A stretch of DNA of 64,000 nucleotides, from assembly GCA_963726175.1 (NCBI GenBank), contig CAVSBM010000008.1:26153-90152 (forward strand), given 5' to 3'. Under the pieces are notes generated by a model. That model saw nothing but the letters and a program-made list of their open reading frames with translations. It was not told the origin of the DNA and searched no databases. The stretch comes from an uncultured Chloroflexia bacterium. Lineage in GTDB: Bacteria; Chloroflexota; Dehalococcoidia; GIF9; AB-539-J10. Within the stretch, counting starts at the first letter, position 1; each line of letters opens with the position of its first letter. A program made the position numbers and the translations under genes. Positions 33,522 through 64,000 of the stretch are shown in pieces.

Positions 33522-33527
33522 CTAAAC

Positions 33528-41289: not shown

Positions 41290-41294
41290 AGCAA

Positions 41295-43708: not shown

Positions 43709-43734
43709 GCGGGTGTGATACGGTGCCTATCTCA

Positions 43735-44040: not shown

Positions 44041-44066
44041 GGCTGTTTGAAAAAAGGAGGTAAAGT

Positions 44067-45926
44067 ATGGCACGAGGTTACATGGGAAAGATTCTGTTTG
44101 CGGATCTTTCCAAAGACAAGCTAAGGGATGAGGCGCTTGACGAAAAGCTTTGCCGCCAGTTCATTGGAGGGTATGGCATCGGCGCCAGAATCCTGTTCAG
44201 CCGACAAAAAGCCGGTGTTGACCCTTTGGGACCGGACAATACTCTGGGCATCCTTACGGGCCCCTTTACCGGCACTCCGGCACTTGCGGGTACAAAGCAC
44301 ACTGTAGCAGGAAAATCACCGTTGACCGGGGGCTGGGGCGATGCCAATTCCGGTGGTTACTTCGGTGCCTTTCTGAAGTACGCCGGCTACGATGCCGTGT
44401 TCTTTAGCGGAATATCGGCAAAGCCGGTCTACCTGTTTATCAACAATGGTAAGGCTGAACTGAGGGATGCCGCCCACCTATGGGGGAAGGACACTCGCCA
44501 GACCGAAGAAATACTCAAATCGGAATTGGGCAAGGATGTGGAGGTAGCTTGCATTGGCCCCTCAGGTGAGAAGCTTTCGCTCATCGCAGCAGTGTTTAAC
44601 AGGAGCCGGACCGCGGCTCGTTCCGGTCTGGGTGCCGTAATGGGCTCCAAGAAGCTCAAGGCAGTGGCGGTGAAGGGCAACATGAAGGTCCCCCTGGCCG
44701 ATGAACAAAGAACCAAGGAACTGAGAAAGAAATACACGGCTGAACTGGGCGGGCATATTGTCTGGTTGAAGCCGTTTGGCACGCCTTTCCTCGTTGACAT
44801 CGGCGTTCTGAGTGGTGATTCGCCGGTCAAAAACTGGGCAGGAGTAGGGGTTATTGACTTTCCAGATTTTCAAACCCATAGCCAAGGAGGCTGTGATTGA
44901 GCGTATGACGAAGAAGTTTGCCTGTTACCAGTGCCCTATCGGATGCGGGGGGTACATGAAGGCAGGAACCGGAGAGTATAAATATGCCGCTGGTTCCCGG
45001 AGACCGGAATATGAAACGATTGCCATGTTTGGCACCAATTGTCTCAACAACAACCTGGAATCGATAATCAAGGCAGCCGATATTTGCGATCGCTACGGAG
45101 TTGACACCATCTCGGCCGGGGCGACCATCGCTCTCGCTATTGAATGTTATGAGAAGGGGCTTATCACCAAGAAAGACACCGATGGTATTGAAATGACCTG
45201 GGGCAACCACAAAGCCATCGTGGCCATGACCGAAAAATTGGCTAAGAGGGAAGGTTTTGGTGACGTGTTAGCCGATGGAGTGAAGGTGGCAGCGGAGAAG
45301 ATTGGCAAGGGCGCTGACCAATACGCCATACATGTTGGGGGGCAGGAACTTCCGGCACATGACCCGAAGCATGCTTTTTACCTTGCCACTAGCTACAGGA
45401 TGGACCCCACTCCAGGCCGTCATTTTGTGGGCTCAGAGTTGTCAGACGCCCCCTATCATCCTGCAGGACTGCTGCCCAAATTCGACTTAAAGTCCTTTTC
45501 CGGCAGAGGAGAAGCACGCAAGATAGGCAGCAGTTTCCACCAAGTCGTGGTTTGTACCGGGACATGCCTGTTCGTGTACTGGGCTTTTCCCAATGTTGAC
45601 CCTATCGCCGATTTCATGAGGGCGGTTACCGGCTGGGATGTGACTGGATGAGGAATTACTGAAGACAGGAGAGAGAATTGCCAATATCCGGCAGGCGTTC
45701 AATATTCGAGAAGGGTTGAACCCGCTAAAGTTCAAGGTCTCCGACAGAGTTCTGGGGAAGCCACCACTAAAGGCAGGGCCTCTAGCCGGGGTGACCATTG
45801 ATGAGGATACCATGATCAAAGAGTACCTGAGCTGCCATGGATTGGGACCTCAAGACAGCCAAGCCCAGTAAGAAGAAACTGCTGGAACTGGGGCTGACAG
45901 ACGTAGCTCAGGAACTCTGGCCTTAG
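44067..45926 (+). pseudogene. aldehyde:ferredoxin oxidoreductase (tungsten AOR family), 3 frame breaks
   Basis: Pieces 44067-44900, 44854-45651, and two further frames to TAG 45924-45926. AOR hallmarks are present (N-terminal MGKILFADLS..., ..ACYQCPIGCGG..). The +1 breaks lie near 44870, 45648 and 45833. Confidence 0.75.
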
Positions 45927-46000
45927 CCGGGACAACTCACGCCGCAAACCATGCGGCAAAGTCGAGTGCCTGAACCAGAACAGACGGGCGCTTCCGTTGC

Positions 46001-46768
46001 CTATATCATCACGGTTCCGCCATCAATATAGATAATCTGTCCGGAGATCATGTCCGAGGCAGCTGAGGCTAAAAACAAGACTGCCCCCGCCGGGTCGGTT
46101 GGCTGCAAACGTTGGTGAATTGATTGTTCCCCGGTGGCAATCCCGAATATTTTTTCGCTATCCGTCTGGGCTAGACTGGCCTCGGTAGCCACATATCCCG
46201 GGGCAACAGCGTTGACATTAATACCTGAGGGACCCAGAGCTCTAGCCAGGGCGTGGGTTAGTATGTAAACCGCTCCCTTAGTACAGGCATACGGTAAAAA
46301 GAGTTGGGCCGCGGGGACTCTGGCAACGTTAGACGCAATGTTGATAATCTTGCCCTTTTTCTGCTTTACCATCAGCGGAGCTATGGCCTTGCAAACCACC
46401 CATGTTCCTCTTACATTCACCACAAACATCTGATCCCACTCCTTGACCGTCCAAGCATCCCAGGGCTGGGCATTGATTCCGTACCATATAGCAGCATTAT
46501 TGATGAGGACATCAACTCTGCCATACTGCTGTATAACCTTCTCCGCTATCTTCTTGCCAGCGTCTTCGTGCGAAATATCAGCCTCCATGATTGCTACTTC
46601 CCCACCCTTAGCCTTTACCTCTTTAACCGTGCCCTGAGCCCTCTCCAGATTAGTGGTAGTCAATAGCAATTTGGCCCCTTCTTCAGCAAACTTCAAGGCG
46701 AAGCTTTTCCCCATACCGCGACTGGCACCGGTTATGACAGCCACCTTGTCCTTTAATACTCCTGACAT
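46001..46768 (-). CDS. short-chain dehydrogenase/reductase
   Basis: 255 aa with VAVITGASRGMGK and a catalytic YACTK. Confidence 0.85.
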   Translation of the reverse strand: MSGVLKDKVAVITGASRGMGKSFALKFAEEGAKLLLTTTNLERAQGTVKEVKAKGGEVAIMEADISHEDAGKKIAEKVIQQYGRVDVLINNAAIWYGINAQPWDAWTVKEWDQMFVVNVRGTWVVCKAIAPLMVKQKKGKIINIASNVARVPAAQLFLPYACTKGAVYILTHALARALGPSGINVNAVAPGYVATEASLAQTDSEKIFGIATGEQSIHQRLQPTDPAGAVLFLASAASDMISGQIIYIDGGTVMI

Positions 46769-46841
46769 ATCTCCCTCCTTTTAATCTTTCAGCACGAAGT
46801 CTCACAGTTAAAAATATTCTATAGTCTGACGGCCGAAAAAC

Positions 46842-47411
46842 TCAACCTTTAACTTTCGGGCTGCCCACATAGCCTTTGACATTCCCTTTTTCAAATTCAT
46901 CCAGGATAATTTCGGTGGTCCACATAGCTGTCTGCATAATAGTGCAGCCACGCGATATCCCCAAGAATTCTATGCTCATGTCATCGCGTGCCAAGTCCCA
47001 CGCCTTCCCAAAGAATCTTCTCTGGACATCCTTGCACAGTATGGAGTTATATTCTTGATAATACTTATTCAGAAGGGTATTGCGAACAGTAGCACAATTC
47101 TCACGGAAACTGCGCTCGTTGAAGGTCTCTTGTTGAATTCCCAAAGCCAAGCCAAGCACCAAAGCACCGCTCGCTACGGCGGCACAGGTACCATATCCGC
47201 TCAAGCCAACACCACCAGTGAGAACACATATCCCCGAAAAAAGCCTATCCTCCATATCCTTGGGGATAATCTCCAGACCACCCCATCTCAGGGCATCAAT
47301 CGTTGCCAAAAATGTACACTGGCCACAACCCCTGTATTTTGCTTCATACTGTATAGCTAGCTCATTTGCTTTCTTAATAATCTCGCCCCTGGTCTTCGTG
47401 AGCCTGGCCAT
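46842..47411 (-). CDS. C_GCAxxG_C_C family redox protein
   Basis: 189 aa. The motif elements appear in order: YRGCGQC, GTCAAVASG, ILCKDV, RGCT. Confidence 0.6.
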   Translation of the reverse strand: MARLTKTRGEIIKKANELAIQYEAKYRGCGQCTFLATIDALRWGGLEIIPKDMEDRLFSGICVLTGGVGLSGYGTCAAVASGALVLGLALGIQQETFNERSFRENCATVRNTLLNKYYQEYNSILCKDVQRRFFGKAWDLARDDMSIEFLGISRGCTIMQTAMWTTEIILDEFEKGNVKGYVGSPKVKG

Positions 47412-47579
47412 AATTATCGCGCCTCCGTTTCCACCTTAAATTGCACGCATTGTACCATGAATAGACAGCTTACTGTCAACGGGTAGAAAAAGTCTCGCGG
47501 CTCCTGTTATAATATTTCTTCAAATAGGATTGACGCCAGCGGACCATATAGTCCGATCCAGGTCAAGGAGGGAAGGAAT

Positions 47580-48212
47580 ATGGCTAAAGACCTAGTCAAG
47601 ACATTGGCTGATTTGAAGGAACAAGAGGTTATTAAGATTGTTGAGGATAGGCTGAACGCCAAGGAAGATCCACTCAAAATCTTGGAGGACGCCAGGAGAG
47701 GCATGGAAATCGTGGGCAAGCGTTTTGCCAACAGCGAGTACTTCATACCTGACCTGGTGTACTCCGGTGAGATACTTAAGTCGGTAACCGAGCTGGTCAA
47801 GCCCAAGCTGACCAAGGCGGCTGAGAGCAAGAAGCTGGGCAAGGTTGTTTTCGGCACGGTTGCCGGGGATATACACGACATCGGCAAGGACATCGTCGTC
47901 TTTATGCTCGATGTCAATGAGTTTGAGGTATACGACCTCGGCGTTGATGTCCCGGCGCAAAAGTTTGTGGAGAAGATAAAGGAGACTGGGGCCCCCATTG
48001 TTGGCTTAAGCGGATTTTTGACGCTGGCTTTTGATTCCATGAAGCAAACTATGGACGCTATAAAGGCCGCCGGCTTACGAGACAAGGTAAAAGTCATGAT
48101 TGGCGGCGGGCAGATAACCGATGAGATAAGGAAGTATACAGGTGCTGATGCCTATGGTAAGGATGCCATGACCGGGGTGTCCCTGGCCAAGAAATGGGCA
48201 GGCGCCAAGTAA
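47580..48212 (+). CDS. corrinoid (cobalamin-binding) protein of a methyltransferase system
   Basis: 210 aa with an N-terminal helical cap. B12-binding motifs DxHxxG (GDIHDIGK), SxL (LSGFL) and GG (MIGGG) are all present. Confidence 0.85.
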   Translation: MAKDLVKTLADLKEQEVIKIVEDRLNAKEDPLKILEDARRGMEIVGKRFANSEYFIPDLVYSGEILKSVTELVKPKLTKAAESKKLGKVVFGTVAGDIHDIGKDIVVFMLDVNEFEVYDLGVDVPAQKFVEKIKETGAPIVGLSGFLTLAFDSMKQTMDAIKAAGLRDKVKVMIGGGQITDEIRKYTGADAYGKDAMTGVSLAKKWAGAK

Positions 48213-48242
48213 TAATCCTCACACAATGCGGAGGTAATAGAA

Positions 48243-49580
48243 ATGGAAAAGAAATGGGAAGAGATGTCACCAGAGGAAAAGCAAGAAGCGCGGTTTCAGA
48301 AGTGGCTTGCGCCGGAGGGCGTCAAGTTTGCCAGCCCGGAAGCTGGGAAGCTCTACAAGGAGAGGGCCACCCGGATAAAAGACGCCATCCAGATGAAGAA
48401 GAAGCCGGACAGGGTGCCGGTACTGCTGATACCTAGCTTTGCCCCTGCCTTTTATTCCAGACTGACCCCTCGTGAGGTCATGTATGACTATGAAAAAGCC
48501 AACCAGGCCTGGAAGAAATTCTACCTTGACACTCAGCCAGATGCACACTTTGGCTGCGTGGCGCCTGGGCCGGGACCCTTCTTTGACATTCTTGACTACA
48601 AGTTGTACAAGTGGCCTGGCCACGGCGTCGCACCTGAATCCACCTACCAGGCTATCGAAGGCGAGTACATGAAGGCGGATGAATATGATGCCTTGATCCA
48701 GGACCCGACATATTTCTTCACCACCACCTATCTGCCACGCATATTCGGCGCACTGGAGTCCTTCAAGCAACTGCCTAATCTCACCACCTATGTTGAAATG
48801 TACGGGACAGGCATTACTTTCTTCCCCTACGGTCTGCCCGATGTTCAGGCTGCCTTCAAGAAGCTTCTGGAAGCCGGGAGTGAAGCCCTGAAATGGCTGG
48901 GATATTTCGGTGCCTTTATGAAGGAGATGACGGAGTTGGGATTTCCCGCGGGTCAGGGCGGCTATACCAAAGCGCCTTTTGATATTCTGGCTGACACCCT
49001 CAGAGGCACTAAAGGGATAATGATGGATATGTACCGACAGCCCGATAAGCTCATCAAAGCCATGGATGCCATGTTGCCATTCTGGATTCAGAAGGGGGTG
49101 ATCGAGGCAAATATGAACTCAAATCCTCTAATATTCATACCTCTGCATAAAGGTGCCGATGGGTTTATGTCTGACGAGCAGTATAAGAAATTCTACTGGC
49201 CTTATCTGAAGAAGATAATCCTGGGCTTGGCTGACGAGGGAGTGGTGCCATTCATCTGGGCTGAAGGGGGCTATAACTCGCGTCTGGAGGTCATCCGAGA
49301 TTTACCGAAGGGTAAAACAGCATGGTTGTTTGACATCGTAGATATTGCCAAAGCCAAGAAGGCACTGGATGGCATTGCCTGCGTGTGCGGCACCATGCCC
49401 ACGGACTTGCTGACAATAGGCACATCCCAGCAAGCTAGAGACCACGCCAAGAAGTGCATTGATGTTGCCGGCAAAGGCGGCGGCTATATCATGAGCAATG
49501 GAGCATTCTTCGATCAGGTGAAGTGGGAGAATCTCAAGGCGATAGTTGAAACCGTCAAGGAATACGGAGCATACAAATAG
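48243..49580 (+). CDS. uroporphyrinogen-decarboxylase (URO-D) family methyltransferase (substrate:corrinoid MT candidate)
   Basis: 445-aa intact ORF lying 30 nt after the corrinoid protein gene. The URO-D-like TIM-barrel assignment rests on overall similarity as I recognise it, together with the operon context. Confidence 0.6.
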   Translation: MEKKWEEMSPEEKQEARFQKWLAPEGVKFASPEAGKLYKERATRIKDAIQMKKKPDRVPVLLIPSFAPAFYSRLTPREVMYDYEKANQAWKKFYLDTQPDAHFGCVAPGPGPFFDILDYKLYKWPGHGVAPESTYQAIEGEYMKADEYDALIQDPTYFFTTTYLPRIFGALESFKQLPNLTTYVEMYGTGITFFPYGLPDVQAAFKKLLEAGSEALKWLGYFGAFMKEMTELGFPAGQGGYTKAPFDILADTLRGTKGIMMDMYRQPDKLIKAMDAMLPFWIQKGVIEANMNSNPLIFIPLHKGADGFMSDEQYKKFYWPYLKKIILGLADEGVVPFIWAEGGYNSRLEVIRDLPKGKTAWLFDIVDIAKAKKALDGIACVCGTMPTDLLTIGTSQQARDHAKKCIDVAGKGGGYIMSNGAFFDQVKWENLKAIVETVKEYGAYK

Positions 49581-49638
49581 CTACCGAACGGGTTAGCGGG
49601 CTGGCGCGGTAACATAAGAGCAAAAAAGAGGCTGTGCT

Positions 49639-50328: not shown

Positions 50329-50441
50329 TCGGAAAACGGAATACAGGAGCAAATATTTGACCATCGTGAATATTATGTGATAAAAAGTCTCACTCAGGTG
50401 AGTCAATGTGGATGGTGAACAGTGGGCATGGATGGTGATAA

Positions 50442-52331
50442 GTGACAACCAAAGCCTTCGCCAACAAGAAGGTGACTGCTTGCACAATTGACTTTGAGCC
50501 GGTAGGTCGCAGAGGGAGGTGTCAAAGGAACGAGTCTCTTCTGACTTGTGCTCGGCGCCTCGGTGTAGGTATCAGCAGCGTATGCGGGGGCAACGGAACA
50601 TGCCATGCATGCAGGGTGCAGGTCCTAAGTGGCACCGTCTCCAAACCAACACCTAACGAAGAAGAGACATTTGATTCACAAGAACTGAAAGAGGGGTGGC
50701 GGCTTGCCTGTCAGACTTATCCCGCGAGCGATGTGAAGTTGGTGATCCCAGCTGAGTCCATGACCACCCCACAGCGACTTCAGGTGGAGGGACTGGAGGT
50801 GAGAGTCTCCCCCGAGCCATCAGTTCGAGTCTACCGCCTGCAGCTATCTGCTCCCTCACTGGAGGACCCCCAAGCTGATGCCGACCGCCTGCTTAAGACA
50901 CTGAGCCAGCAGCACAAGCTGCGATGCGCCAAGATTGACATTGGTGCCCTGCGCACGATCTCCGGCCAACTGCGGTCGTGGAAGTGGAGAAGTCAGGCTG
51001 TAGTCCGTAATGGCGAGGTGATAGCCATTCTCCCCTCAAAAAGCCGCCGGCTGGGGCTGGCCATAGACCTGGGCACCACCAAGATTGCTGGCTACCTGGT
51101 TGACCTCACTGATGGCCGGACTTTGGCCGCCAAAGGGATAGTGAATCCTCAAATTAGCTACGGGGAAGATATCATCAGCCGTATTAACAGGGTGGTGAAG
51201 TCACCAGATGGGGGTGTACAGTTGCAGAAACTCGCGGTTGACGCCGTCAACGAGCTTTGCGCTGACCTCTGTGCTGAGGCTGGTGCCAAATCTGAACAGA
51301 TTTTGGAGGCAGTAGTCGTGGGCAATACCGCCATGCATCACCTTTTCCTTCGCCTGCCTGTAAAACAGCTTGTGCTCTCTCCTTTCGTGCCTGCCGTCAG
51401 TCGGGCATTGGAGGTCAGGGCTGGCGAATTGGGGCTGAATATTACCTCCGGGGCATACGTACACCTGCTGCCGAACATCGCCGGCTTCGTTGGTGCTGAT
51501 CATGTAGCGATGTTGCTGGCCACAGATGCCTGGCAGGCAAAAGAAACAACGGTGGCTCTGGACATCGGGACTAACACCGAGGTCTCTTTAATCTACAAGG
51601 GGAAGATAGCCACTACCTCCTGTGCCTCCGGACCTGCCTTCGAGGGTGGCCATATCAAGTACGGCATGCGGGCAGCCACAGGAGCTATTGAACGCCTGCG
51701 GCTTATCGACGATGTGATCCAGTATCAGACAATCGATGAGGCGCCGCCGGTTGGCATCTGCGGCTCTGGCATACTTGATGCACTGGCTCAGCTTTATCTG
51801 GCTAAAGTCATAGATGAAAGCGGCAGAATGATGAACAACCACCCGCGTATTCGCAATTACAAAGGACAGCACGAGTTTATATTGGTTAACAAGGAGGAGC
51901 GGAATGGGAAGCCAGCTATCACCATCACCCAGCATGACATAAGGGAATTGCAGCTGGCTAAGGCAGCCATTCGCACCGGCATCCAGGTGCTTCTGGAAAC
52001 GAGCGGCTGCGCTGAAGACGATATCAAGCAGGTGATAATTGCCGGAGCCTTTGGCACCTACATCGATATATCCAGTGCCGTGGCAATCGGCATGTTGCCG
52101 CCACTGCCTCTGAAACACTTCCGGCAGGTGGGCAATGCCGCCGGCATGGGAGCCAAGCTGGCACTGATTTCCCTTAGATCGCGGGCCCAGGCAGAGGCTA
52201 TCGCCTCCAGAGTTAGTTATATTGAACTAGCCAGCAGCCCTAACTTTCAGCCAACATTTATGCAGGCAACTTATCTGGGAAGATATCGCATTGTAGACGG
52301 CAGAAGGGAGAAATTGACTTATGCAGACTAG
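50442..52331 (+). CDS. reductive activator of corrinoid proteins (RACo; 2Fe-2S ferredoxin + ASKHA ATPase, DUF4445)
   Basis: 629 aa with a GTG start. The N-terminal plant-type ferredoxin carries CGGNGTCHACRV. The ASKHA part has LAIDLGTTKIAG, ALDIGTNTE and GICGSGILD. Confidence 0.8.
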   Translation: MTTKAFANKKVTACTIDFEPVGRRGRCQRNESLLTCARRLGVGISSVCGGNGTCHACRVQVLSGTVSKPTPNEEETFDSQELKEGWRLACQTYPASDVKLVIPAESMTTPQRLQVEGLEVRVSPEPSVRVYRLQLSAPSLEDPQADADRLLKTLSQQHKLRCAKIDIGALRTISGQLRSWKWRSQAVVRNGEVIAILPSKSRRLGLAIDLGTTKIAGYLVDLTDGRTLAAKGIVNPQISYGEDIISRINRVVKSPDGGVQLQKLAVDAVNELCADLCAEAGAKSEQILEAVVVGNTAMHHLFLRLPVKQLVLSPFVPAVSRALEVRAGELGLNITSGAYVHLLPNIAGFVGADHVAMLLATDAWQAKETTVALDIGTNTEVSLIYKGKIATTSCASGPAFEGGHIKYGMRAATGAIERLRLIDDVIQYQTIDEAPPVGICGSGILDALAQLYLAKVIDESGRMMNNHPRIRNYKGQHEFILVNKEERNGKPAITITQHDIRELQLAKAAIRTGIQVLLETSGCAEDDIKQVIIAGAFGTYIDISSAVAIGMLPPLPLKHFRQVGNAAGMGAKLALISLRSRAQAEAIASRVSYIELASSPNFQPTFMQATYLGRYRIVDGRREKLTYAD

Positions 52332-53175
52332 AGTGTCAAGTCCGAAGAAAGAAGTCATCATTGGTGATGACCAGCCCACAGTGCTTATCGGCGAGCGTAT
52401 CAATCCCACAGGCAAGAGAAAGCTAGCCGAGGCTCTTAAGGCTGGCGACCTGGAGATTGTCCGCAAGGAAGCCTTGGCTCAAGTGCAAGCCGGGGCCGAT
52501 ATTATTGATGTCAACGTGGGGGCATTCGGCGTCGACGAGGTGACCCTGCTGCCCAAAGCAGTGCAGGCAGTGATGGGCACCGTAGACGTACCCCTATGCC
52601 TTGATAGCTCTAACCCCGATGCTCTCGAGGCGGCACTCAAGGTCTATAAGGGTAAGCCGCTGGTTAACTCAGTTACCGGTGAAGAGCACTCCCTGAAGCG
52701 GATTCTACCTTTAGTCAAAAGATATGGGGCTGCCGTCATCGGTCTGGTGCAGGATGATGAAGGTATTCCCAAGGATGCTGAGCGAAGGGTGCTGATTGCC
52801 CATAAGATAGTGGAAAAGGTCGAGGCAGCAGGCATACCCCGTGAGGACTTAGTCATTGATTGCCTGGCTTTCGCGGTAGGAGCTGAACCTAGCTCTGGGG
52901 TGGCAGTTATAGAAGCCATCCGGCGGATTAAGGCCGAACTGGGGGTGAACATGACAATGGGTGCCAGCAATGTATCTTTCGGCTTGCCTGACCGCGAACT
53001 GCTCAATAACGCCTTCGTCGTCATGGCTGTTGCCGCTGGTGCCACCTGCCTCATTGTGGATGTGGCTAAGGTGCGCCCAATTATTCTAGCTGCCGACATT
53101 GTGCTCGGTCGTGACAAGCGTGCCCGACGCTATATTGAAGCCTATCGGCAGCGCCCGAAGCCGGATAGACAATAA
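52321..53175 (+). CDS. methyl-tetrahydrofolate:corrinoid methyltransferase (pterin-binding, MeTr/AcsE-like)
   Basis: 284 aa with ..IGERINPTGKRKLAEAL..GADIIDVNVG.., ..NSVTGE.. and ..MGASNVSFGLP.., as in DHPS-like pterin-binding barrels. Confidence 0.8.
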   Translation: MQTRVSSPKKEVIIGDDQPTVLIGERINPTGKRKLAEALKAGDLEIVRKEALAQVQAGADIIDVNVGAFGVDEVTLLPKAVQAVMGTVDVPLCLDSSNPDALEAALKVYKGKPLVNSVTGEEHSLKRILPLVKRYGAAVIGLVQDDEGIPKDAERRVLIAHKIVEKVEAAGIPREDLVIDCLAFAVGAEPSSGVAVIEAIRRIKAELGVNMTMGASNVSFGLPDRELLNNAFVVMAVAAGATCLIVDVAKVRPIILAADIVLGRDKRARRYIEAYRQRPKPDRQ

Positions 53176-53199
53176 GAAGTAAATGACAGGGAGGTAACA

Positions 53200-55287: not shown

Positions 55288-55534
55288 ATTGAGCTTTCAG
55301 CCAAGGCATTCTTGCCACAGAACATGCTATGGAGTCAGCCAAGAGTTGACGGTTACTGCCTGGCGATGATACCATTGAGAGAGGTCATCTCTGGTCGTGA
55401 AATCATCCAGATGGGAGGCAATAGAGATAAGAGATGAACTGAAGGCTCAAACGAGAATCTGACTGTCTTTAACTATCACATCGGTCCTATGTAACTGCAG
55501 GAAATTCTGAAAAAGGAGGTGCAACATCGGCGAT

Positions 55535-56290
55535 TTGTTTGATTTGACAGGCAAGGTTGCTGTAGTGGTTGGTGGTGCTGGCGGCATCGGTCGTGCACAA
55601 GCTCTGGCGCTCGCGGATGCTGGTGCTGACGTCATCGTGGCTAGCCGTAAACTTGAACATCTCGAGCCGGTAGCCAAAGAGATACAAGCTCGGGGTAGAA
55701 AGTCACTGGCTGTTCCTGTCGAGGTTACTGAAGAGAAATCAGTAGCGGCTATGGTCGATAGTGTCGTGAAGAAATTCCCACACATTGATATTCTGGTAAA
55801 CGCTCATGGTCTGGCGATTCGCAAGCCTGCCGATGCCTTTCCCATTGATGAGTGGCAGAAGGTTATGGATATTAACACCCGCGGCACCTTCCTCACCTGC
55901 CAGGCGGTTGGGCGGGTGATGATCAAGCAGCGCAGTGGTAAGATCATAAACCTATCGTCGGTGAGAGGCAGATACGGCCTCCCAGCAGACTACGCGGCCT
56001 ATTGTGCCAGTAAAGGGGCTGTAGATAGCCTGACACGAACGCTGGCCTGCGAGTGGGCCAAGTACAACGTACTGGTGAACGCACTCGCGCCCACTATGGT
56101 GGAGACCGAACTTACCCGTACTGCCTTGGCCAACCCTCAGTTTGCCCAGCAGATGAAGTCCCGTATTCCGCTCGGCCGTTGGGCAATGCCGGAGGATATT
56201 GTGGGGGCTACCATATTCTTTGCCTCAAAAGCGTCAGACTTCATCACCGGGCAAATCCTGTACATCGACGGTGGCGTGACTACCTGGTAG
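55535..56290 (+). CDS. SDR-family oxidoreductase (candidate phloroglucinol reductase)
   Basis: 251 aa with VAVVVGGAGGIGRA and a catalytic YCASK. It is the first gene of a five-gene co-directional operon. The start codon is uncertain (TTG 55535, or ATC 55526 closer to the AGGAGG). Confidence 0.8.
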   Translation: MFDLTGKVAVVVGGAGGIGRAQALALADAGADVIVASRKLEHLEPVAKEIQARGRKSLAVPVEVTEEKSVAAMVDSVVKKFPHIDILVNAHGLAIRKPADAFPIDEWQKVMDINTRGTFLTCQAVGRVMIKQRSGKIINLSSVRGRYGLPADYAAYCASKGAVDSLTRTLACEWAKYNVLVNALAPTMVETELTRTALANPQFAQQMKSRIPLGRWAMPEDIVGATIFFASKASDFITGQILYIDGGVTTW

Positions 56291-56335
56291 TAGAATACTT
56301 TACAGCTAGAATCTAATTTTAGGGAGGTACATATT

Positions 56336-57277
56336 ATGGGTAAAAAAGTATTTGTTTCTCTGTCGCATCCCTTCGGTGCGGAAATTCCCCGCTGGCCTTA
56401 TTTTGACAAGCCGATAATCGATAATACGCACACCATGGCAAAAGGCGGCGTTCTGACGCAGAAGATCACCTGCACTATGCACACCGGTACGCATTGCGAT
56501 GCTCCCCGTCACGTTATGGAAATCGAGTTCGACGGCAAAAGAGCCCGTTACACGCACGAAATGCCTATTGATGCCTACACTGGCGATGCCGTTTGCCTTC
56601 CCATCGAGATCGAGCGCTGGGGACTGATCCTCCCGAAGCATCTTGAGGCTGCCTGCGAAAAAGTGGGTATCAAGCCGAGCGAACTGAAAGGCATGGTCGT
56701 TTGCCTGAATAGTGGCATGCATCGCAAGTTTGACGACTCCAAGGAGTACTATCATTATTCCTGCGGTACCGGCGTCGAAGCCGGCAGATGGTTTTTAAAG
56801 CACAAGGTAAAGTGCGTTGCTCAGGATATGCAGGCGTCGGACCATCCTCTCCACACCGCTATGGGCAACAACGGCATGACCCGTATGAACCTCCTCGGCG
56901 CTTCCGGCAAGCCTATCACCGAAGAGTACATTGAGCAGTTCGGTGAAGAAGCCTATGCCGAATTTGATAAGTTTACCTACATCAAAGTGCATGGCAAAGA
57001 AGCTTATGACAAGAAGTTCGGCGACCTGGAAGCCATCGGCTGCTGGGGCACCTGGGAGCCCTGCCATAAGATACTGCTGGGTCACGGCATAGTCGGCATT
57101 GAAAACCTTGGCGGAGATCTGGATAAGGTTTCCGGTAAGCGCTTCAGGTTCTACTGCTTCCCGATCCGCTGGTACATGGGCGATGGCTCCATGGCTCACT
57201 GCGTTGCAGAAATCGACGAAGACGATCTGAATGATGTGCCCGATAGGACCTACACCTACGCCGGCGTCCTCGCTTAA
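56336..57277 (+). CDS. cyclase-family metal hydrolase (kynurenine formamidase/isatin hydrolase-like; candidate dihydrophloroglucinol cyclohydrolase)
   Basis: 313 aa with the HxGTHxDxPxH motif present as MHTGTHCDAPRH. Confidence 0.7.
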   Translation: MGKKVFVSLSHPFGAEIPRWPYFDKPIIDNTHTMAKGGVLTQKITCTMHTGTHCDAPRHVMEIEFDGKRARYTHEMPIDAYTGDAVCLPIEIERWGLILPKHLEAACEKVGIKPSELKGMVVCLNSGMHRKFDDSKEYYHYSCGTGVEAGRWFLKHKVKCVAQDMQASDHPLHTAMGNNGMTRMNLLGASGKPITEEYIEQFGEEAYAEFDKFTYIKVHGKEAYDKKFGDLEAIGCWGTWEPCHKILLGHGIVGIENLGGDLDKVSGKRFRFYCFPIRWYMGDGSMAHCVAEIDEDDLNDVPDRTYTYAGVLA

Positions 57278-57329
57278 GTATATAGCTGTTTGTTTACCCC
57301 GATAATTCAAAACTAAATATGGAGGAGAT

Positions 57330-57662: not shown

Positions 57663-57723
57663 TAGTCTTCTCTGTTGCGAGCAATTGTCACGATTCCTGC
57701 CTGAGTAGGAAAGAGGGCAGCTT

Positions 57724-58671
57724 ATGAAAGCAGAAGAAATTAATCACGTTGGCCTGCTGGGAGCCGGCATGGTGGGGCATGGACTGGCACTGCATTTTGC
57801 GAAGGCAGGTTATCGGGTATCTTTATACTCCCGGACTCAGCAAACGCTGGACAAAGCCGTTGAAAATATTAAGTCAAATCTCCACGTCCTACTGCAAGGA
57901 CAAGCTAGCGTAGAGGATGAAGTAAAGAAGATCATAAGCAGGATAAAAACAACAAGAAACATAGACGAAGCAGTGGCGAAGGCCCCAATTATTATCGAAT
58001 CAGTGGCTGAAGACCTAAAGGTCAAACAAGATCTATTTAAGGAACTAGATCAGATCTGCCCCAGGGATGTTATTCTGGCCACAAATACATCGGTAATCAG
58101 CATAACCGCGATAGCATCTAAAGCCAAGAACCGGGATAGAATCATTGGAACACACTTCTGGTTTCCGCCATACCTTATCCCTCTGGTTGAGGTGGTAAAG
58201 GGAAAGGACACCTCTAGTGACACAATGGAAACAACCTATCAATTCATGAAAAAGGCTGGGAAACACCCCATCAAATGCTTGAAGGACGTCCCAGGATTCG
58301 TCGCTAACCGTCTCCAGCACGCCCTGTGGCGGGAAGCCATCTCAATCGTAGAAAAAGGGATTGCCGATCCAGCTACTGTCGACGATGCTATCAAGCAGAG
58401 TTTTGGCATCCGGATTCCGGTTCTGGGGCCAATTGAGAATGCCGATATGGTGGGGCTAGATTTGATTCTGGCCATCCACAATACAGTTTTGCAGGATTTG
58501 GAGGCTTCTCCCAACCCCTCACCGCTCTTGAAGGACAAGGTAAGTAAAGGTGAGCTTGGGTTCAAATCTGGAAAAGGCTTCTATGACAGCTGGACACCAG
58601 AAAGGATGAAGCGCACTAGAGAAAGGCTTATGAAGCATCTCATTGATTACTCCCGCAAGCAACAAACTTGA
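57724..58671 (+). CDS. 3-hydroxyacyl-CoA dehydrogenase-family NAD(P) oxidoreductase (candidate 3-hydroxy-5-oxohexanoate dehydrogenase)
   Basis: 315 aa with a Rossmann N-terminus (VGLLGAGMVGHGLA) and 3HCDH N- and C-domain-like regions. Confidence 0.75.
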   Translation: MKAEEINHVGLLGAGMVGHGLALHFAKAGYRVSLYSRTQQTLDKAVENIKSNLHVLLQGQASVEDEVKKIISRIKTTRNIDEAVAKAPIIIESVAEDLKVKQDLFKELDQICPRDVILATNTSVISITAIASKAKNRDRIIGTHFWFPPYLIPLVEVVKGKDTSSDTMETTYQFMKKAGKHPIKCLKDVPGFVANRLQHALWREAISIVEKGIADPATVDDAIKQSFGIRIPVLGPIENADMVGLDLILAIHNTVLQDLEASPNPSPLLKDKVSKGELGFKSGKGFYDSWTPERMKRTRERLMKHLIDYSRKQQT

Positions 58672-58710
58672 GACACTGTGTGATATCGATAACCGGCAAC
58701 GCAAGGAGGA

Positions 58711-59655
58711 ATGCACGAGATGGAAAAACTAATCATAACCGCGGCTCTAACCGGCAATATCACCCTGCCGACTCAGACACCTTATCTACCGCTTACACCA
58801 CAACAAATCGCCGATGAGGCGGTAAGGTGTGCCAATGCCGGTGCAGCTTCGGTACACATCCATGGCCGGGACCCCCAGACCGGCAAGCCGACTACTGACC
58901 CAGCGGTCTACCGGGAGATTGCCACTCTCATCAAGGCAAGAAGCAACGTCATTGTCTGCGTGACCACCGGCGGCACCATGGAAATGACCGCGGCGGAAAG
59001 GATAAGGGTTGTCCCGGCTCTTAAGCCAGAGCTGGCTACGTTTAACATGGGATCGATTAACTTCTCAATCCACCCCATAGCCGAGCGATATAAGGACTCG
59101 GACTACAAGTATCCCTGGGAGAAGGATTTTGCCGCCGGAACCATAAATTTCATCTTCCGTAATACCTTTGGTGATATCGAGCACTTCTGTAAGACCATGA
59201 CTGAGAATAATACAAAACCCGAACACGAAGCATATGACGTAGGGCACCTGTACAATATACAGTATTGTATTAGGAGAAAGCTTGTGCAATTCCCCATCTG
59301 GGTTCAATTCGTGACTGGAATTTTGGGAGCGATCGGCGCTGATCTGGAGAATATCATGTTCATGAAACAGACAGCTGACCGATTGTTCGGGCCGGAAAAC
59401 TACAAGTGGTCGGTAATTGGTGCGGGCTATCCCGCGGAGTTCAACCTGGCGACGCTGGCGATAATGATGGGTGGGCATGTTCGCGTTGGCTTTGAAGACA
59501 ATATTTTTGTGCGCAAAGGAGTATTGGCCAAGAGCAACGCTGAACTGGTAGAGAAGGCAGTCAGAATCGCCCGGGAGCTAGAACGGGAAATAGCTACGCC
59601 GGACGAAGCAAGAGCGATCCTTGGCCTGAAAGGGAAGGACAAGGTCAGCTATTAG
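58711..59655 (+). CDS. beta-keto acid cleavage enzyme (BKACE/DUF849) family protein (candidate triacetate acetoacetate-lyase)
   Basis: 314 aa. ..LIITAALTGN......ASVHIHGRD.. is the typical BKACE N-terminus. The start may be ATG 58720. Confidence 0.75.
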   Translation: MHEMEKLIITAALTGNITLPTQTPYLPLTPQQIADEAVRCANAGAASVHIHGRDPQTGKPTTDPAVYREIATLIKARSNVIVCVTTGGTMEMTAAERIRVVPALKPELATFNMGSINFSIHPIAERYKDSDYKYPWEKDFAAGTINFIFRNTFGDIEHFCKTMTENNTKPEHEAYDVGHLYNIQYCIRRKLVQFPIWVQFVTGILGAIGADLENIMFMKQTADRLFGPENYKWSVIGAGYPAEFNLATLAIMMGGHVRVGFEDNIFVRKGVLAKSNAELVEKAVRIARELEREIATPDEARAILGLKGKDKVSY

Positions 59656-59697
59656 AAGGACTGGGCATAATACCCGACAGAAGAATCTCTTCGATTT

Positions 59698-60324
59698 CTA
59701 TTTTGTTTCTTGAGCCCGGCGATCTTCTGTTGGCGACTGGTAGGTGGCTACTTGACGGCTTTTGCAATCTGTAAGCTTGGACACGTTTGAAGGGGATTGC
59801 GTCAAATCAGCGACGACCACAAATTCGTACTCAGGGAAATGCCTCTGAAGTGCTTCTTTTAACGAACTCCTTACTACTATGAGCACGCTAACTGGTGAGG
59901 CTAGGGCTAGTTCGACTGCTGGCATAAGCCCCTTGCCACACAGTTCCAACGGGCCGACCTCATCGATGACCACCAAATCGCATCTACTTTCAACTGCCCT
60001 TTTGATAGCACCGCAGGCAAACGCAATCGCACGACTGCTGATGGTATAGTCGCCAACCACTTCACCTCCCTTGAAACGTCCAAGGCAGGACAGCCGGGCG
60101 AAAGGGACCTCTTTGCCGGTGAGGAGGTCAATTACGTTGAAGCCAATTCGTTGTCTTTGCTTCTCAATCGCTGGGGAAAGGACTCCGCCAACGCTGGAAC
60201 CGCATTGTCGCCGCCGGTCAATGTATTCTCTGCACCAACTGGTCTTGCCCGACCTTGGTTCACCTACGACGAGCAGTCTCACTAAAGATCTGATGCGAAG
60301 GCAACTGCCGCGCCAATCCAGCAA
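59698..60324 (-). CDS. P-loop NTPase, DUF2478/THEP1-like
   Basis: 208 aa. Walker A GEPRSGKTS and Walker B DLVVIDEVGPLE. Confidence 0.6.
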   Translation of the reverse strand: MLDWRGSCLRIRSLVRLLVVGEPRSGKTSWCREYIDRRRQCGSSVGGVLSPAIEKQRQRIGFNVIDLLTGKEVPFARLSCLGRFKGGEVVGDYTISSRAIAFACGAIKRAVESRCDLVVIDEVGPLELCGKGLMPAVELALASPVSVLIVVRSSLKEALQRHFPEYEFVVVADLTQSPSNVSKLTDCKSRQVATYQSPTEDRRAQETK

Positions 60325-60345
60325 AAGGCCATGATGGCTATAGTG

Positions 60346-60991
60346 CTAGCATAGAACAAACTTGGGCTTCACAGTCATGAGTTGCCAGAAGTTGGGTCGG
60401 AGCTTTGCGCCCACCAGGTGTCCTAGGAGCAGCAGACAAGTACCTACAATAGCCAGAGCTGTGCCATCGGTAAGTGCCGCAGTGACCCTCTCAGTAGGTC
60501 CCCAGGATGCCCAGTTGCCCATACCTATGGTCGATGCCAGGATGGCGTAAAGGATGGCGCTGAGGTATCCTGCTGAGATACCAACAGCAATGCGCGTCTT
60601 GATACTGCTTTCGAAACCTTTAAACAACAGGCTGACTACCAGGGTGAAGGCCAGTGCTTCCAGAAGGATTGCCGAGGCAGGATTGACCACGAAGGGAGAA
60701 AAGATAGGTTGGCCATAAATCACGGCGCTCAGCGGCTTGAACAGGGCGGCGATGACTCCGAGCCAGAATACGAGTCTTAGGCCGTCGATAGATGACAACA
60801 AATGTTGCCATGAGTGCCATGCCGATGCCCCCTGTAATTGCCCCTTTGTAGGCGAAGTGGACAAGGTGTAAAGCCCCGCCCAGAGTAGCTTCCACAAGGC
60901 CCCAGATTGAGCCAAAGACCAGAATCCCGACGATTACACGCAAAATAGTCCCCGACCCCGAGAGTGTTTTGATTTTGTTAGATACCTGCAT
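60346..60991 (-). CDS. hypothetical polytopic membrane protein (one frame break)
   Basis: ORFs 60620-61006 (from MQVSNK...) and 60346-60915 overlap in different frames and read colinearly as one membrane protein of about 215 aa. The break lies near 60790. Confidence 0.45.
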
Positions 60992-61136
60992 ACTTTGCCT
61001 CCCCATTCATAAGCTTGCCTGAGTTTGCACTTAACTATATCAAACAGGGATTTTTTGGTCAATATGATGTTGACTGTTCCGAGTTCACCGTATTAGAATA
61101 ATAAACTGAGTCAGACGAAAAAGGAGGTGGAAGAAT

Positions 61137-63729
61137 ATGGCTCGTTCTGCGAAAGAAGAACAGGTTTTTACCAATTGTACCGTCGGCGGACCACTTTTTG
61201 TGTACGTGAAGAACGGGAAAATAACACGCGTTGAACCCTTGGAGCTCAGTCCTGATGATGCTGAATCCTGGGTCATAAGAGCACGGGGAAGGAAATTTTC
61301 CCCTGCGAGAATGGCGAACGTTGCACAATATGCCTTGGCTGAGAGGTCAAGGATATATTCCCCCGATAGGCTTCTTTATCCCCTTAAGAGAGTTGATTTC
61401 AATCCGCAAGGAGATAGAAAAGCTGAAAACAGGGGTACGTCAGGCTATAAGCGAATCAGCTGGGACGAAGCCTTAGATATTCTGGCCAAAGAAATAGAGC
61501 GTGTCCACAAGACTTATGGGCCTGGCGCAGTTCTCACCACGCCTTCTTCACATCACAATTGGGGCAATATAGGTTACAGGCACAGCAGCCTCTTAAGGTT
61601 CATGGGAATCCTGAATGCTACCTACGTTGACCACAATCCGGATAGCTGGGAGGGGTGGCACTGGGGGGCAATGCATATGTGGGGGTTTGCCTGGAGGCTG
61701 GGCATTTCATCGCAATACGATCTCCTGGAAGATGCCTTGAAACACGCCGAGATGGTGGTCTACTGGTCTTCTGACCCTGAAAGCACCTCCGGAATCTATG
61801 GAGGGCAGGAGTCAAATCAGTGGCGTTCCTGGCTGAAGGAGCTGGGGGTGAAAATGATTGTTGTAGACCAGCATTATAATTCCACCGCTGTGAATTTTGC
61901 TGACAAATGGTTTGCTCCCAGGCCGGGAACTGACACAGCGATGGCAGCAGCTATCGCCTATGTCTGGCTTACGGAAGGCACATACGATAAGGAATATATT
62001 AAGGAACATGCACACGGATTTGAAAAGTGGAAAGGCTATATACTTGGCGAAGAAGATGGTTTTGCCAAGACGAGTGAATGGGCTGAAAAAGAAACAGGAG
62101 TACCAGCACGAGAGATTAGGGCCCTGGCAAGAGAGTGGGCCAGGCGTAAGACTATGCTGGCCTCTGGGAGCGCACTTGGGGGAGGAGCCTGCAGGACGGC
62201 CTACGGGACAGAATGGGCAAGGTATATGGTTATGCTGGCAGCCATGCAGGGGATGGGCAAGCCAGGGAGCAACATATGGACAACAAACTACGGTGCCCCC
62301 CAGAATTTTGACTTCTTCTTTCCGGGATATGCTGAAGGCGGCATATCCGGCGACCCACTAAACACTGCTGCCCACTTCCAAATGGTCTCACGAGGAATAA
62401 CAAAACATCCGATAAGGTCTGAAGTGAATGATCCTGGGGGACAGCATATACCCAGGATTCTACTTCCTGAGTGCATTTTGAATCCGCCTCAGGAGTGGCG
62501 AGGGAAGGGCTTTTGTGGCGCTTCGCCTGAAACTCAGTTCAAGAAATACAAGTATCCTGAAGATGGATACTCTGAGGTGAAGATGTTCTGGCGGTATGGC
62601 GGTTCCTATATTGGCACCATGAACAACACAAACAGGTGGGTCAGGATGTACCGGAGTCCCAAGCTTGAGTTTGTGGTTAACCAGTCAATCTGGATGGAAG
62701 GTGAAGCGCAACTTGCTGACTTGATACTTCCAGCCTGCACCAATTTTGAGAGATGGGACATCGGCGAGTGGGCTAACTGCTCGGGTTACATTCCTCATTG
62801 CCATTATACAGTCAACCATCGGACAATAGTGCTACAAAAGAAATGTATTGAACCACTGGGAGAATCTAAGGCAGATTACGACATATTCGCTGCGGTAGCT
62901 GAGAGGCTTGGCTTCTACGAGCAAGTTCACCGAAGGGGGCTTAACAGAGCTGGACTGGGTAAAGAAGCTGTTCCAATTAACTGACCTGCCGAAGTACATT
63001 TCGTGGGAAGAGTTTGAGAAGAAAGGCTACTTCGTTGTCCCACTGCCAAAACCTTATAAGTCCACACCAAGTTTGAGATGGTTTGCCGAGGGACGGAAGA
63101 ACGATACACCAGACTGGGGACCTGTGGGTGGAGGGGTAGCAAGCATACCAGATGCCGAAGGCAACCTGGCTACCCAGACGGGTAAAATAGAGTTTGAAGC
63201 AGAAAGCCTCAAACGGTTCGACCCCGATGACTGGGAAAGGCCACCCGTGGCCAAGTATATCCCTTCCTGGGAAGGTCATCACACAAAGGAGCTTTACTCC
63301 AAATACCCCCTTCAGCTCATTTCTCCTCACCCGAGGTATAGTTTTCACACCATGTATGATGGTAAAGATAGCTGGATAAATGAAATACCGGAACACAGGG
63401 TTAAAAAGGAAGATGGACGGTACTACTGGGTGATTCGGATAAATTCGAGAGACGCCGAGAAAAGGGGCATAAGAGATGGCGATTTGGTCAACGTCTACAA
63501 CGACAGAGGAGTTGTCATATGTGCAGCGCAGGTTACAGAGCGTGTCCCATACGGTATGGTTCATTCGTACGAGTCCTGCGCTGTTTATGACCCAATCGGA
63601 GAGCCTGGCGAATCGCCAGATAGAGGTGGATGTATCAACCTGCTGACACCGCATCGTTTTATATCTAAGAATGCCTGTGGCATGGCTCCGAATTCCTGTC
63701 TGGTTGAAATTGAAAAGAGGAGGGAATAA
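61137..63729 (+). CDS. molybdopterin oxidoreductase large subunit, pyrogallol-phloroglucinol transhydroxylase (AthL)-like (one frame break)
   Basis: ORFs 61137-62984 and 62908-63729 join with a +1 break near 62925 (..LGFYEQ/FTEGGLTELDW..). It has no twin-arginine signal and no N-terminal Cys cluster. Blocks such as GGPLFVYVKNGKITRVEP, HNPDSWEGWHWGAMHMWGF, ILPACTNFERWDIGEWANCSGYIP and HSYESCAVYDPIGEPGESPDRGGCINLLTP match my recollection of the Pelobacter enzyme. Confidence 0.7.
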
Positions 63730-63731
63730 AT

Positions 63732-64000
63732 ATGGCTAAGTGGGGTATGGTAATAGATATAACAAAGTGCAATGCTTGCTATAGCTGTTTCATAGCCTGC
63801 AAAGACGAGTACTGGGATAACGATTATCCTCCCTATTCCGCAGGCTCAGCCCAGGCATGGACAATTCTGGATGGACCTCGTGAAGAAAGAGCGTGGAGCG
63901 TGTCCTTGGGTGAAGGTCGCATACATACCTGTACTTTGTATGCAGTGCGACAACGCGCCCTGTGTTAAGGCTGCCAGGAACCGCGCGGCATATAAAAGGC
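63732..64000 (+). CDS. 4Fe-4S ferredoxin-type beta subunit of the molybdoenzyme (partial; one frame break)
   Basis: MAKWGMVIDITKCNACYSCFIACKDE.... After about 63845 the +1 frame continues AQPRHGQFWMDLVKKERGACPWVKVAYIPVLCMQCDNAPCVKAA.... The 3' end lies outside the window. Confidence 0.7.

Follow-up and report, generated by a model that had tools for sequence, protein, structure and literature searches.

Two probably separable catabolic modules, a pyrogallol-phloroglucinol unit and a corrinoid methyltransferase block, side by side in an uncultured Dehalococcoidia bacterium

We analysed a stretch of 64,000 nucleotides from an uncultured member of the Dehalococcoidia (contig CAVSBM010000008.1, positions 26,153 to 90,152, of assembly GCA_963726175.1), referred to below as the window, whose right-hand part carries candidate genes for the anaerobic breakdown of aromatic compounds. 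This interval probably represents two separable catabolic modules that are neighbours within a single sub-lineage of uncultured Dehalococcoidia from sediment or soil, and the frame breaks that run through it are probably assembly or sequencing indels. Module A, on the left, consists in order of a Liv-type ATP-binding cassette (ABC) transporter (LivK-H-M-G-F), an aldehyde:ferredoxin oxidoreductase (AOR), a short-chain dehydrogenase (SDR), a C_GCAxxG_C_C protein, a corrinoid protein, methyltransferase I, a protein of 229 amino acids, the reductive activator RACo, methyltransferase II, and an RCC1-repeat surface protein, and this order was found in more than 20 metagenome contigs. Module B consists of a second SDR, dihydrophloroglucinol cyclohydrolase (DPGC), a cupin, the dehydrogenase TfD, a BKACE protein, an NTPase, a membrane protein, and the large subunit of pyrogallol-phloroglucinol transhydroxylase (AthL), in an order conserved in six Dehalococcoidia metagenome-assembled genomes (MAGs; L001, L002, L003, L004, L006, and L008), with the small subunit (BthL) running off the end of the window.

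Genes were called from a listing of open reading frames (ORFs) and their translations, and families were assigned by Pfam and NCBIfam scans. For comparison, 164 loci were fetched, which carry labels such as L001 to L008, L147, and L161. Look-ups of the exact sequences of the window's BKACE, cupin, and DPGC, aimed at reading the contig past 64,000, matched no record. The window's nearest relatives, with nucleotide identity of about 90%, are found among Dehalococcoidia MAGs such as Chloroflexi bacterium RBG_13_51_36; L161, which holds the closest relative of the window's methyltransferase I (93% identity), served as the reference for module-A synteny. Every gene and module that an initial annotation of this DNA had listed between positions 44067 and 64000 was recovered in place, and its individual functional assignments hold at the family level (Table 1). 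Its left boundary at 44067 falls too far to the right, as the conserved block begins at about 38.2 kb with the Liv-type transporter.

Table 1. Genes of the two modules, with window coordinates and the matches on which the family assignments are based
Feature	Coordinates	Strand	Family or evidence
Module A
Liv-type ABC transporter (binding protein, two permeases, two ATPases); left end of module A	38160..43708	+	ORF fragments
Tungsten-type AOR	44067..~45990	+	AFOR_N 245 bits, AFOR_C 259 bits; four frame pieces
SDR1, short-chain dehydrogenase	46001..46768	-	adh_short
C_GCAxxG_C_C putative redox protein	46842..47411	-	PF09719 33 bits (cutoff 27)
Corrinoid (B12-binding) protein	47580..48212	+	B12-binding, B12-binding_2; TIGR02370 168 bits
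Methyltransferase I, long-form UroD superfamily	48243..49580	+	URO-D (Pfam)
MetH-activation-like protein, 229 amino acids	49639..50328	+	PF02965 E 4.5e-4, below cutoff
RACo-type reductive activator (2Fe-2S and ASKHA domains)	50442..52331	+	Fer2, RACo_linker, Raco_middle, RACo_C_ter; AcsV-type 440 bits
Methyltransferase II, methyl-corrinoid:tetrahydrofolate methyltransferase	52321..53175	+	Pterin_bind; NF005719 298 bits (cutoff 259)
RCC1-repeat cell-surface protein, 695 amino acids	53200..55287	+	Pfam
Module B
SDR in phloroglucinol reductase position, first module-B gene	55535..56290	+	adh_short_C2
DPGC	56336..57277	+	Cyclase family PF04199
Cupin, 110 amino acids	57330..57662	+	Cupin_2
(S)-3-Hydroxy-5-oxohexanoate dehydrogenase, TfD type	57724..58671	+	3HCDH_N, 3HCDH
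BKACE in triacetate acetoacetate-lyase (TAL) position	58711..59655	+	BKACE 355 bits
NTPase_1/DUF2478 P-loop protein	59698..60324	-	Pfam
Membrane protein, 242 amino acids in relatives, frameshifted in the window	60284..61006	-	L003 orthologue
Transhydroxylase large subunit AthL	61137..63729	+	AhtL-like_1st (PF21423), Molybdopterin (PF00384), Molydop_binding (PF01568)
Transhydroxylase small subunit BthL, start only (~90 codons)	63732..64000	+	Frame reading

The junction between the two modules

Two sets of loci bear on the relationship between the modules. The A-anchored contigs are metagenome contigs found with methyltransferase I and were considered informative if they extended at least 2 kb beyond the RCC1 or methyltransferase II gene (n = 14), and the DPGC-anchored set comprises 80 homologue loci, among them four Dehalococcoidia loci with upstream sequence (L002, L003, L004, and L006). 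Module B lies downstream of module A in only 1 of the 14 informative A-anchored contigs (L147) and is missing from the other 13, including L161. After the RCC1 gene, the other contigs carry integrase-like, flavodoxin-type-reductase-like, ATPase-like, or small unrelated ORFs (read by eye, with Pfam annotation for L161 only). Nucleotide collinearity between the window and L161 extends from 38,160 to 55,298 at 84 to 85% and ends exactly at the junction, between the RCC1 gene and the module-B SDR. Seen from the other side, module A is present upstream in two of the four informative Dehalococcoidia loci anchored on DPGC (L002 and L004) but not in L003, where a transposase and other genes precede module B, or in L006, which has a different neighbour. 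These comparisons show two modules, each conserved on its own, which appear to have been joined in one sub-lineage at a recombination-prone site and do not seem to form an obligate unit.

Several features of the adjacent loci are informative about this site. In L004, a direct repeat of 151 nucleotides (1042-1192 and 5354-5504; 80% identical) flanks a three-gene insert between the RCC1 gene and the SDR. The insert consists of an HpaB/4-hydroxybutyryl-CoA-dehydratase-like gene, a DUF362 gene, and a second cyclase (compare L003, 4281-8134). In L147, the place of DPGC is taken by a paralogous cyclase with 44% identity, related to the second cyclase of the L004 insert. The three clearly adjacent loci, namely, the window, L002, and L147, carry three different classes of methyltransferase I. 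Promoter-like sites, which are consensus matches only, occur separately before the corrinoid protein gene (47484-47513), the SDR gene, and the AthL gene, and an Rfam scan of the window for cobalamin and molybdenum cofactor riboswitches found none, returning only tRNAs.

The initial annotation had interpreted the 20 kb as one supercluster for the catabolism of methoxylated and trihydroxy-aromatic compounds. In its full form, this reading takes the whole stretch as a co-evolved unit in which methoxylated trihydroxy-aromatics, such as syringate or trimethoxybenzoate, are O-demethylated and transhydroxylated before the ring is reduced and cleaved. All of the modules required are present and compatible with this route, and synteny of the whole block does hold in L002, L147, and probably L004. 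It is broken, as described above, in 13 of the 14 informative A-anchored contigs as well as in L003 and L006, and a methyltransferase-system gene is present in only 5 of the 80 DPGC-anchored loci. The change of methyltransferase I class from one adjacent locus to the next and the separate promoter-like sites likewise speak against a single unit. A decarboxylase is missing too: as the initial annotation had stated for the window, no gallate decarboxylase of the UbiD/LpdC type is present, and a tblastn search with Escherichia coli UbiD (E <= 1e-3) returned no match in the window or in any of the 164 fetched loci, with the qualification that a very divergent member could escape this single distant query. 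We therefore regard a co-evolved supercluster as unlikely and prefer the reading of two separable modules.

Two observations pull in the opposite direction and weigh against treating the neighbourhood as accidental. The adjacency is not random, as it recurs in the window, L002 (about 80% nucleotide identity), L147, and, with the insert, L004. Furthermore, in two loci from MAGs labelled Sporobacter and Papillibacter (L017 and L026), genes for a UroD-type methyltransferase and a Liv transporter adjoin a cluster of phloroglucinol genes with AthL, an independent association in a second phylum. Members of Sporobacter are known for ring cleavage that follows O-demethylation (PMC8359953). The recurring adjacency and the arrangement in L017 and L026 make a functional link between the modules a real possibility. 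Unlike module A, these two loci have no corrinoid protein, RACo, methyltransferase II, AOR, or RCC1 genes nearby, and their methyltransferase is only 33% identical to that of the window. The order in L017 (111-15308) and in L026 is Liv transporter, UroD-type methyltransferase, two regulators (probably of the LysR type, judged from their N-terminal sequences only), cupin-SDR-TfD-DPGC-BKACE, and AthL-BthL.

The initial annotation had also called the chain of reactions incomplete for want of a decarboxylase. The absence itself was borne out, but the conclusion holds only in part, since demethylation of syringol, 3-methoxycatechol, or 1,2,3-trimethoxybenzene would yield pyrogallol directly, so that no decarboxylase would strictly be needed. 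Separable modules may still cooperate, and a shared flux from methoxyphenol through pyrogallol to phloroglucinol across modules A and B is a tentative proposal, to which we give less than an even chance.

The pyrogallol-phloroglucinol module

The convincing part of the interval is module B, where the phloroglucinol-type operon and the transhydroxylase-like molybdenum enzyme of the initial annotation proved to be a single unit with conserved synteny. The N-terminal 615 residues of AthL match the transhydroxylase large subunit of Pelobacter acidigallici (4v4c_A) at E 3e-242. The two share 59% identity over 586 residues and the same domain set, including the AhtL-specific first domain; the next best solved matches are dimethyl sulfoxide reductases at about E 1e-56. 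Seven residues of AthL, H144, Y152, R153, D174, S175, Y404, and Y560, are all identical in this alignment, and we take Ser175 to be the molybdenum ligand and His144, Tyr152, Arg153, Asp174, Tyr404, and Tyr560 to form the substrate site. Further likenesses to the Pelobacter enzyme are the lack of a twin-arginine signal peptide in the window's AthL (N terminus read by eye) and the ferredoxin and CarboxypepD_reg-like domains of the small subunit in relatives, which in L003 has 280 amino acids and Fer4_11 and CarboxypepD_reg domains. The two systems differ in the host, here a member of the Chloroflexi, in the one inserted base that each subunit of the window copy carries as read, and in the second, divergent pair that follows immediately downstream in relatives of the window. 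AthL is 95 to 97% identical at the protein level to its counterparts in these relatives, and homologues of about 60% identity adjoin the phloroglucinol pathway in L007, L017, L022, L026, and L052, which are labelled as Clostridiales, Oscillospiraceae-type genera, or Bacillota.

The second transhydroxylase-like pair of large and small subunits is found directly after BthL, on the opposite strand, in L003 (18361-20840, minus strand) and L004 (14882-17262, minus strand), and by analogy such a pair probably lies just beyond the end of the window as well. Two transhydroxylase operons per genome have been noted for sediment Chloroflexi (PMC3971608), and the second pair in L003 and L004 fits that description.

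The phloroglucinol pathway, comprising phloroglucinol reductase, DPGC, TfD, and TAL, has been reconstituted biochemically in Clostridium scatologenes, where the DPGC enzyme was defined (PMC10470551), and module B contains the same four enzyme families in one cluster. Its DPGC is 82 to 98% identical to 80 homologues from Chloroflexi, Firmicutes, Spirochaetes, and one alphaproteobacterium, nearly all of them located in SDR-TfD-BKACE clusters (Clostridia, Lachnospiraceae, Spirochaetia, and Dehalococcoidia, including the genera Clostridium, Lacrimispora, and Anaerostipes); the orthology is based on these cluster homologues rather than on a direct alignment with the C. scatologenes DPGC sequence. 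Compared with the C. scatologenes-type clusters of Firmicutes in particular, DPGC is 83 to 92% identical, and TfD is 43 to 55% identical to the cluster gene in most loci. The catalytic triad of TfD is kept, with Ser123, His144, and Asn195 corresponding to Ser122, His143, and Asn194 of the C. scatologenes enzyme (PMC10470551). In most of the 80 loci, and in different phyla, the cupin adjoins the pathway genes, with 44 to 95% identity; it is not mentioned in the paper that defined the pathway (PMC10470551).

The two remaining pathway genes, for the SDR and the BKACE protein, are less close to the characterized system. All Dehalococcoidia loci have the SDR gene just before DPGC, with 71 to 95% identity, although L003 has a RidA/L-PSP family gene between the two (9425-9871) that is absent from the window. 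The SDR retains the catalytic Ser and the Tyr-x3-Lys motif, has S-R-K at the NADP site, and finds its best solved and NCBIfam matches among gluconate 5-dehydrogenase-like proteins. The best solved match of the BKACE protein is 3lot. Some features of these genes count against the roles proposed for them. The SDR is no closer to the SDRs of the Firmicutes clusters (31 to 40% identity) than to generic SDRs, and its S-R-K differs from the T-R-(S/N) 2'-phosphate motif of the published phloroglucinol reductases (PMC10470551). The BKACE protein scores 411 bits on NF053538, "3,5-dioxohexanoate:acetyl-CoA acetone transferase," just under the equivalog cutoff of 430, and it belongs to a different subfamily from the BKACE of the clostridial cluster, which is closest to Kce; its identity to the Firmicutes genes is likewise only 31 to 40%. 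The gene order also differs, being SDR-DPGC-cupin-TfD-BKACE in module B and cupin-SDR-TfD-DPGC-BKACE in the Firmicutes-type cluster. The contrast between the 82 to 98% identity of DPGC across phyla and the 31 to 40% of the adjoining SDR and BKACE genes would mean either that DPGC is under very strong constraint or that it was transferred horizontally on its own.

Unlike the C. scatologenes cluster, module B is linked to AthL and BthL and to the genes for the NTPase and the membrane protein. The NTPase gene lies between the BKACE gene and AthL in L001 to L004, L006, and L008. The membrane protein, in its intact L003 form of 242 amino acids, had no Pfam or NCBIfam match, and the same searches gave no specific function for the NTPase, the cupin, or the C_GCAxxG_C_C protein of module A.

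In the proposed route, the cytoplasmic molybdenum enzyme AthL/BthL would convert pyrogallol to phloroglucinol, which an NADPH-dependent SDR would reduce. The cyclase-family DPGC would then open the ring to give (S)-3-hydroxy-5-oxohexanoate, TfD would oxidize this compound to triacetate, and the BKACE protein, with acetyl-CoA, would split triacetate into acetoacetate and acetoacetyl-CoA, the same end products as those expected for the C. scatologenes cluster. A role of module B in the conversion of pyrogallol through phloroglucinol to acetoacetate and acetoacetyl-CoA is well supported, with the individual enzyme activities predicted from family membership, active-site residues, and synteny.

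Dehalococcoidia are among the most abundant bacteria of anoxic sediments and aquifers, but most of them have so far escaped cultivation, and their carbon sources are deduced from genomes only. Reports of transhydroxylase genes in sediment Chloroflexi date back to 2013 (PMC3971608, PMC4959651), whereas the pathway from phloroglucinol onward was not solved until 2023, in a Clostridium (PMC10470551). What module B adds is that these Dehalococcoidia appear to have all steps between pyrogallol and acetoacetyl-CoA encoded in a single conserved unit, with SDR and BKACE lineages that differ from those of the characterized phloroglucinol pathway.

The corrinoid methyltransferase module and its methyl donor

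The corrinoid methyltransferase system seen in the initial annotation has the four-component architecture of O-demethylases. Module A encodes all of these parts together: methyltransferase I of the UroD type, the corrinoid protein, RACo, and methyltransferase II with its pterin-binding domain. The solved relatives of methyltransferase II include 2yci and the methyltransferase II of a Desulfitobacterium hafniense O-demethylase (4o0q, E 1e-44). The accessory genes are equally regular in their placement. SDR1 keeps a constant position beside AOR in more than 20 contigs, with 75 to 95% identity; the placement of the C_GCAxxG_C_C protein between the SDR and the corrinoid protein is conserved; and in every module-A locus the protein of 229 amino acids separates methyltransferase I from RACo. 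The AOR orthologue of L161 is intact (613 amino acids), and its best solved match is 1aor, at E 2e-114. We considered whether AOR might be a BamB-type subunit of benzoyl-CoA reductase and rejected this assignment, as classical AORs match at E 2e-114 and BamB at 7e-56 over partial length.

At the left end, ABC_tran and BCA_ABC_TP_C domains were recognized on split pieces of the Liv transporter, which is heavily frameshifted in the window, and L161 has an intact five-gene set directly upstream of AOR. Compared with solved structures, the intact binding protein of L161 showed no similarity to aromatic-acid binding proteins, its sole match being a marginal and uninformative one to a urea-binding protein. 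At the right end, the RCC1 protein has a signal peptide, carries 12 RCC1_2 repeats and an InlB B-repeat, and is anchored to the membrane at its C terminus; its gene contains a 114-nucleotide repeat in 13.3 copies. This repeat-rich surface protein had been described as interrupting the block. Its gene starts 25 nucleotides past methyltransferase II and occupies the same position in at least 12 contigs, and we therefore see it as the conserved last gene of module A rather than an interruption. In L089 (14815-16404) and L154 (14830-16419), a gene for an AMP-forming CoA ligase is located between methyltransferase II and RCC1. Only the first ~19 codons of this ligase are left in L094, L097, and L098, fused in frame to the RCC1 signal peptide, and this remnant is a deletion scar.

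The conserved block contrasts with the variability of its substrate-specific enzyme. The corrinoid protein, AOR, RACo, and methyltransferase II are 75 to 94% identical across loci (flanking genes in general, 75 to 95%), unlike methyltransferase I (60 to 96%), which falls into at least three classes with 60 to 69% identity between and 92 to 96% within them (window, L002, L131, L132, L147, L154, and L161). This pattern looks like cassette exchange of the enzyme that would set substrate specificity. Methyltransferase I has more than 7,900 metagenome relatives, the 120 closest of those listed all being labelled uroporphyrinogen decarboxylase or hypothetical, and family members in sediments include Asgard archaea. 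Among solved structures, only CdmB (9rui; E 3.5e-30) is significantly related to it. The alignment is collinear along the full length, with only about 30% identity, as judged by eye in its C-terminal half.

This relationship leaves the substrate of module A ambiguous. CdmB of Acetobacterium is a methyltransferase for chloromethane and leaves methoxy-aromatics unconverted, it belongs to a clade of the UroD superfamily that also holds MtvB, OdmB, VdmB, and MtoB, and homologues of it have been reported in Asgardarchaeota (PMC13222342). Since the clade mixes O-demethylases with a chloromethane enzyme, homology cannot name the methyl donor. The donor might be chloromethane or another haloalkane, methanol, or a methylated thiol or amine, with module A unrelated to aromatics and only a coincidental neighbour of module B at a variable site. 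That the nearest solved relative of methyltransferase I acts on chloromethane and not on methoxy-aromatics counts against an aromatic donor, as do the thousands of uncharacterized sediment relatives, Asgard archaea among them, the occurrence of module A mostly without module B, and the dissimilarity of the transporter binding protein to solved aromatic-acid binding proteins. On the other side, the clade includes all known bacterial-type O-demethylases (MtvB, OdmB, VdmB, and MtoB), and the identity to CdmB is low. The conserved AOR and SDR and, in some loci, the AMP-forming CoA ligase fit a larger substrate with an oxidizable side group better than they fit a C1 compound, and chloromethane or methanol would need no ABC importer. 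On balance, we regard a non-aromatic donor as somewhat doubtful, though a serious contender. A methoxylated aromatic compound is the most likely methyl donor, at about even odds, so that the "methoxylated" half of the initial interpretation is plausible but unproven.

In the proposed working of module A, the Liv-type transporter would import the substrate, the four-component corrinoid system would strip its methyl group and hand it to tetrahydrofolate, and AOR and SDR would probably act on a side group of this substrate, converting it between the alcohol, aldehyde, and acid forms; the surface RCC1 beta-propeller protein is probably co-transcribed with the module. The four-part list of module A is shared by the bacterial-type O-demethylases (Odm and Vdm of Acetobacterium dehalogenans, the O-demethylase of Desulfitobacterium hafniense, MtvABC, and the archaeal MtoABCD) and by CdmBCA (PMC13222342). 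Module A differs from these systems in a methyltransferase I that is only distantly related to any characterized enzyme and is swapped among at least three classes, and in the added Liv transporter, AOR, SDR, C_GCAxxG_C_C, MetH-activation-like, and RCC1 proteins, with the CoA ligase in some loci. The literature yielded no earlier description of an O-demethylase-type cluster or of the module-A block in Dehalococcoidia, which, given incomplete coverage, is weak evidence of novelty. The proposed physiology resembles that of the ring-cleaving methoxydotrophs Sporobacter termitidis and relatives (PMC8359953), i.e., O-demethylation followed by cleavage of a trihydroxybenzene ring, with the Dehalococcoidia known here from genes alone.

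What is new on this side is a very widespread O-demethylase-like block alongside module B, in which the substrate-defining enzyme is swapped between classes. We speculate that widespread sediment Dehalococcoidia may possess a modular system for the complete anaerobic use of lignin- and tannin-derived methoxyphenols, with a conserved scaffold (importer, AOR, SDR, corrinoid system, and RCC1 propeller), interchangeable methyltransferase I cassettes that would set the substrate range, and, in some lineages, docking onto the ring-cleavage module; we give this extension less than an even chance. Under such a scheme, syringol-type methoxyphenols would be demethylated straight to pyrogallol without a decarboxylase and mineralized to acetyl-CoA, and the methyl groups would feed the Wood-Ljungdahl pathway. 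Provided that the methyl donors are lignin-derived methoxyphenols, these Dehalococcoidia would stand with Bathyarchaeia and acetogens among the anaerobes that consume methoxylated aromatics and, unlike most of the latter, could also break the ring.

Frame breaks and flanking genes

Several genes of the interval are interrupted as read, and all of these breaks are single-base indels absent from five or six relatives. Compared with six relatives in which the gene is intact, AOR has single-base insertions at about 44872, 45647, and 45831, with the remaining C terminus in two other frames. AthL has one inserted base at 62922 (863 amino acids in L003), BthL has one at about 63842, and the membrane protein has +1 insertions at 60357 and about 60777, none of which is found in five relatives. 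A 1-nucleotide deletion at 52309 alters the last codons of RACo. The same kind of damage extends to other genes of the window: SecY (10987-12296) is split into three (profile positions 1-64, 67-203, and 194-306), ribosomal protein L6 (9082-9628) is split into two by a single-base indel, and every gene of the Liv transporter (38865-43708) is split, with about ten breaks and two pieces each of LivG and LivF.

The breaks could be taken at face value, as a decaying, non-functional AOR and transhydroxylase in a pathway that is being lost. Consistent with this view, the insertions lie outside homopolymer runs, and they are clustered, with three in AOR, one or two each in AthL, BthL, and the membrane protein, and 13 kb intact between them. 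This uneven spread, with no indels from 46 to 52.3 kb or from 52.3 to 59.6 kb, also has no obvious explanation in errors alone. Decay is nevertheless very improbable. The essential genes secY and rplF (L6) are broken in the same way, into three and two pieces, as is an ABC transporter with about ten similar breaks, and there is no other trace of decay, AthL retaining its high protein identity to relatives with no in-frame stops apart from the shifts. Because the organism cannot live with secY and L6 broken, the "AOR (broken)" of the initial annotation, correct in that the frame is interrupted as read, says nothing about biology and should not be understood as gene decay. The frame breaks are most likely sequence errors and not pseudogenes. 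The practical lesson is that pseudogene-like frame breaks in this DNA reflect assembly errors and are not to be taken as gene loss.

To the left of module A, the window carries genes of other kinds. Positions 1 to 26028 encode elongation factor G and the ribosomal protein operon through secY, adk, map, and rpoA, and this left 26 kb also includes a Trp/Tyr-class (class Ib) tRNA synthetase and six tRNA genes (18679-26028). The segment from 26754 to 38107 contains a minus-strand GlcD/GlcF-like trio (FAD_binding_4, CCG, and FAD_binding_4), an aldehyde dehydrogenase, two DUF169 proteins flanking an SDR, and an acyl-CoA dehydrogenase. In L006, the first FAD_binding_4 gene of this upstream trio adjoins the module-B SDR.

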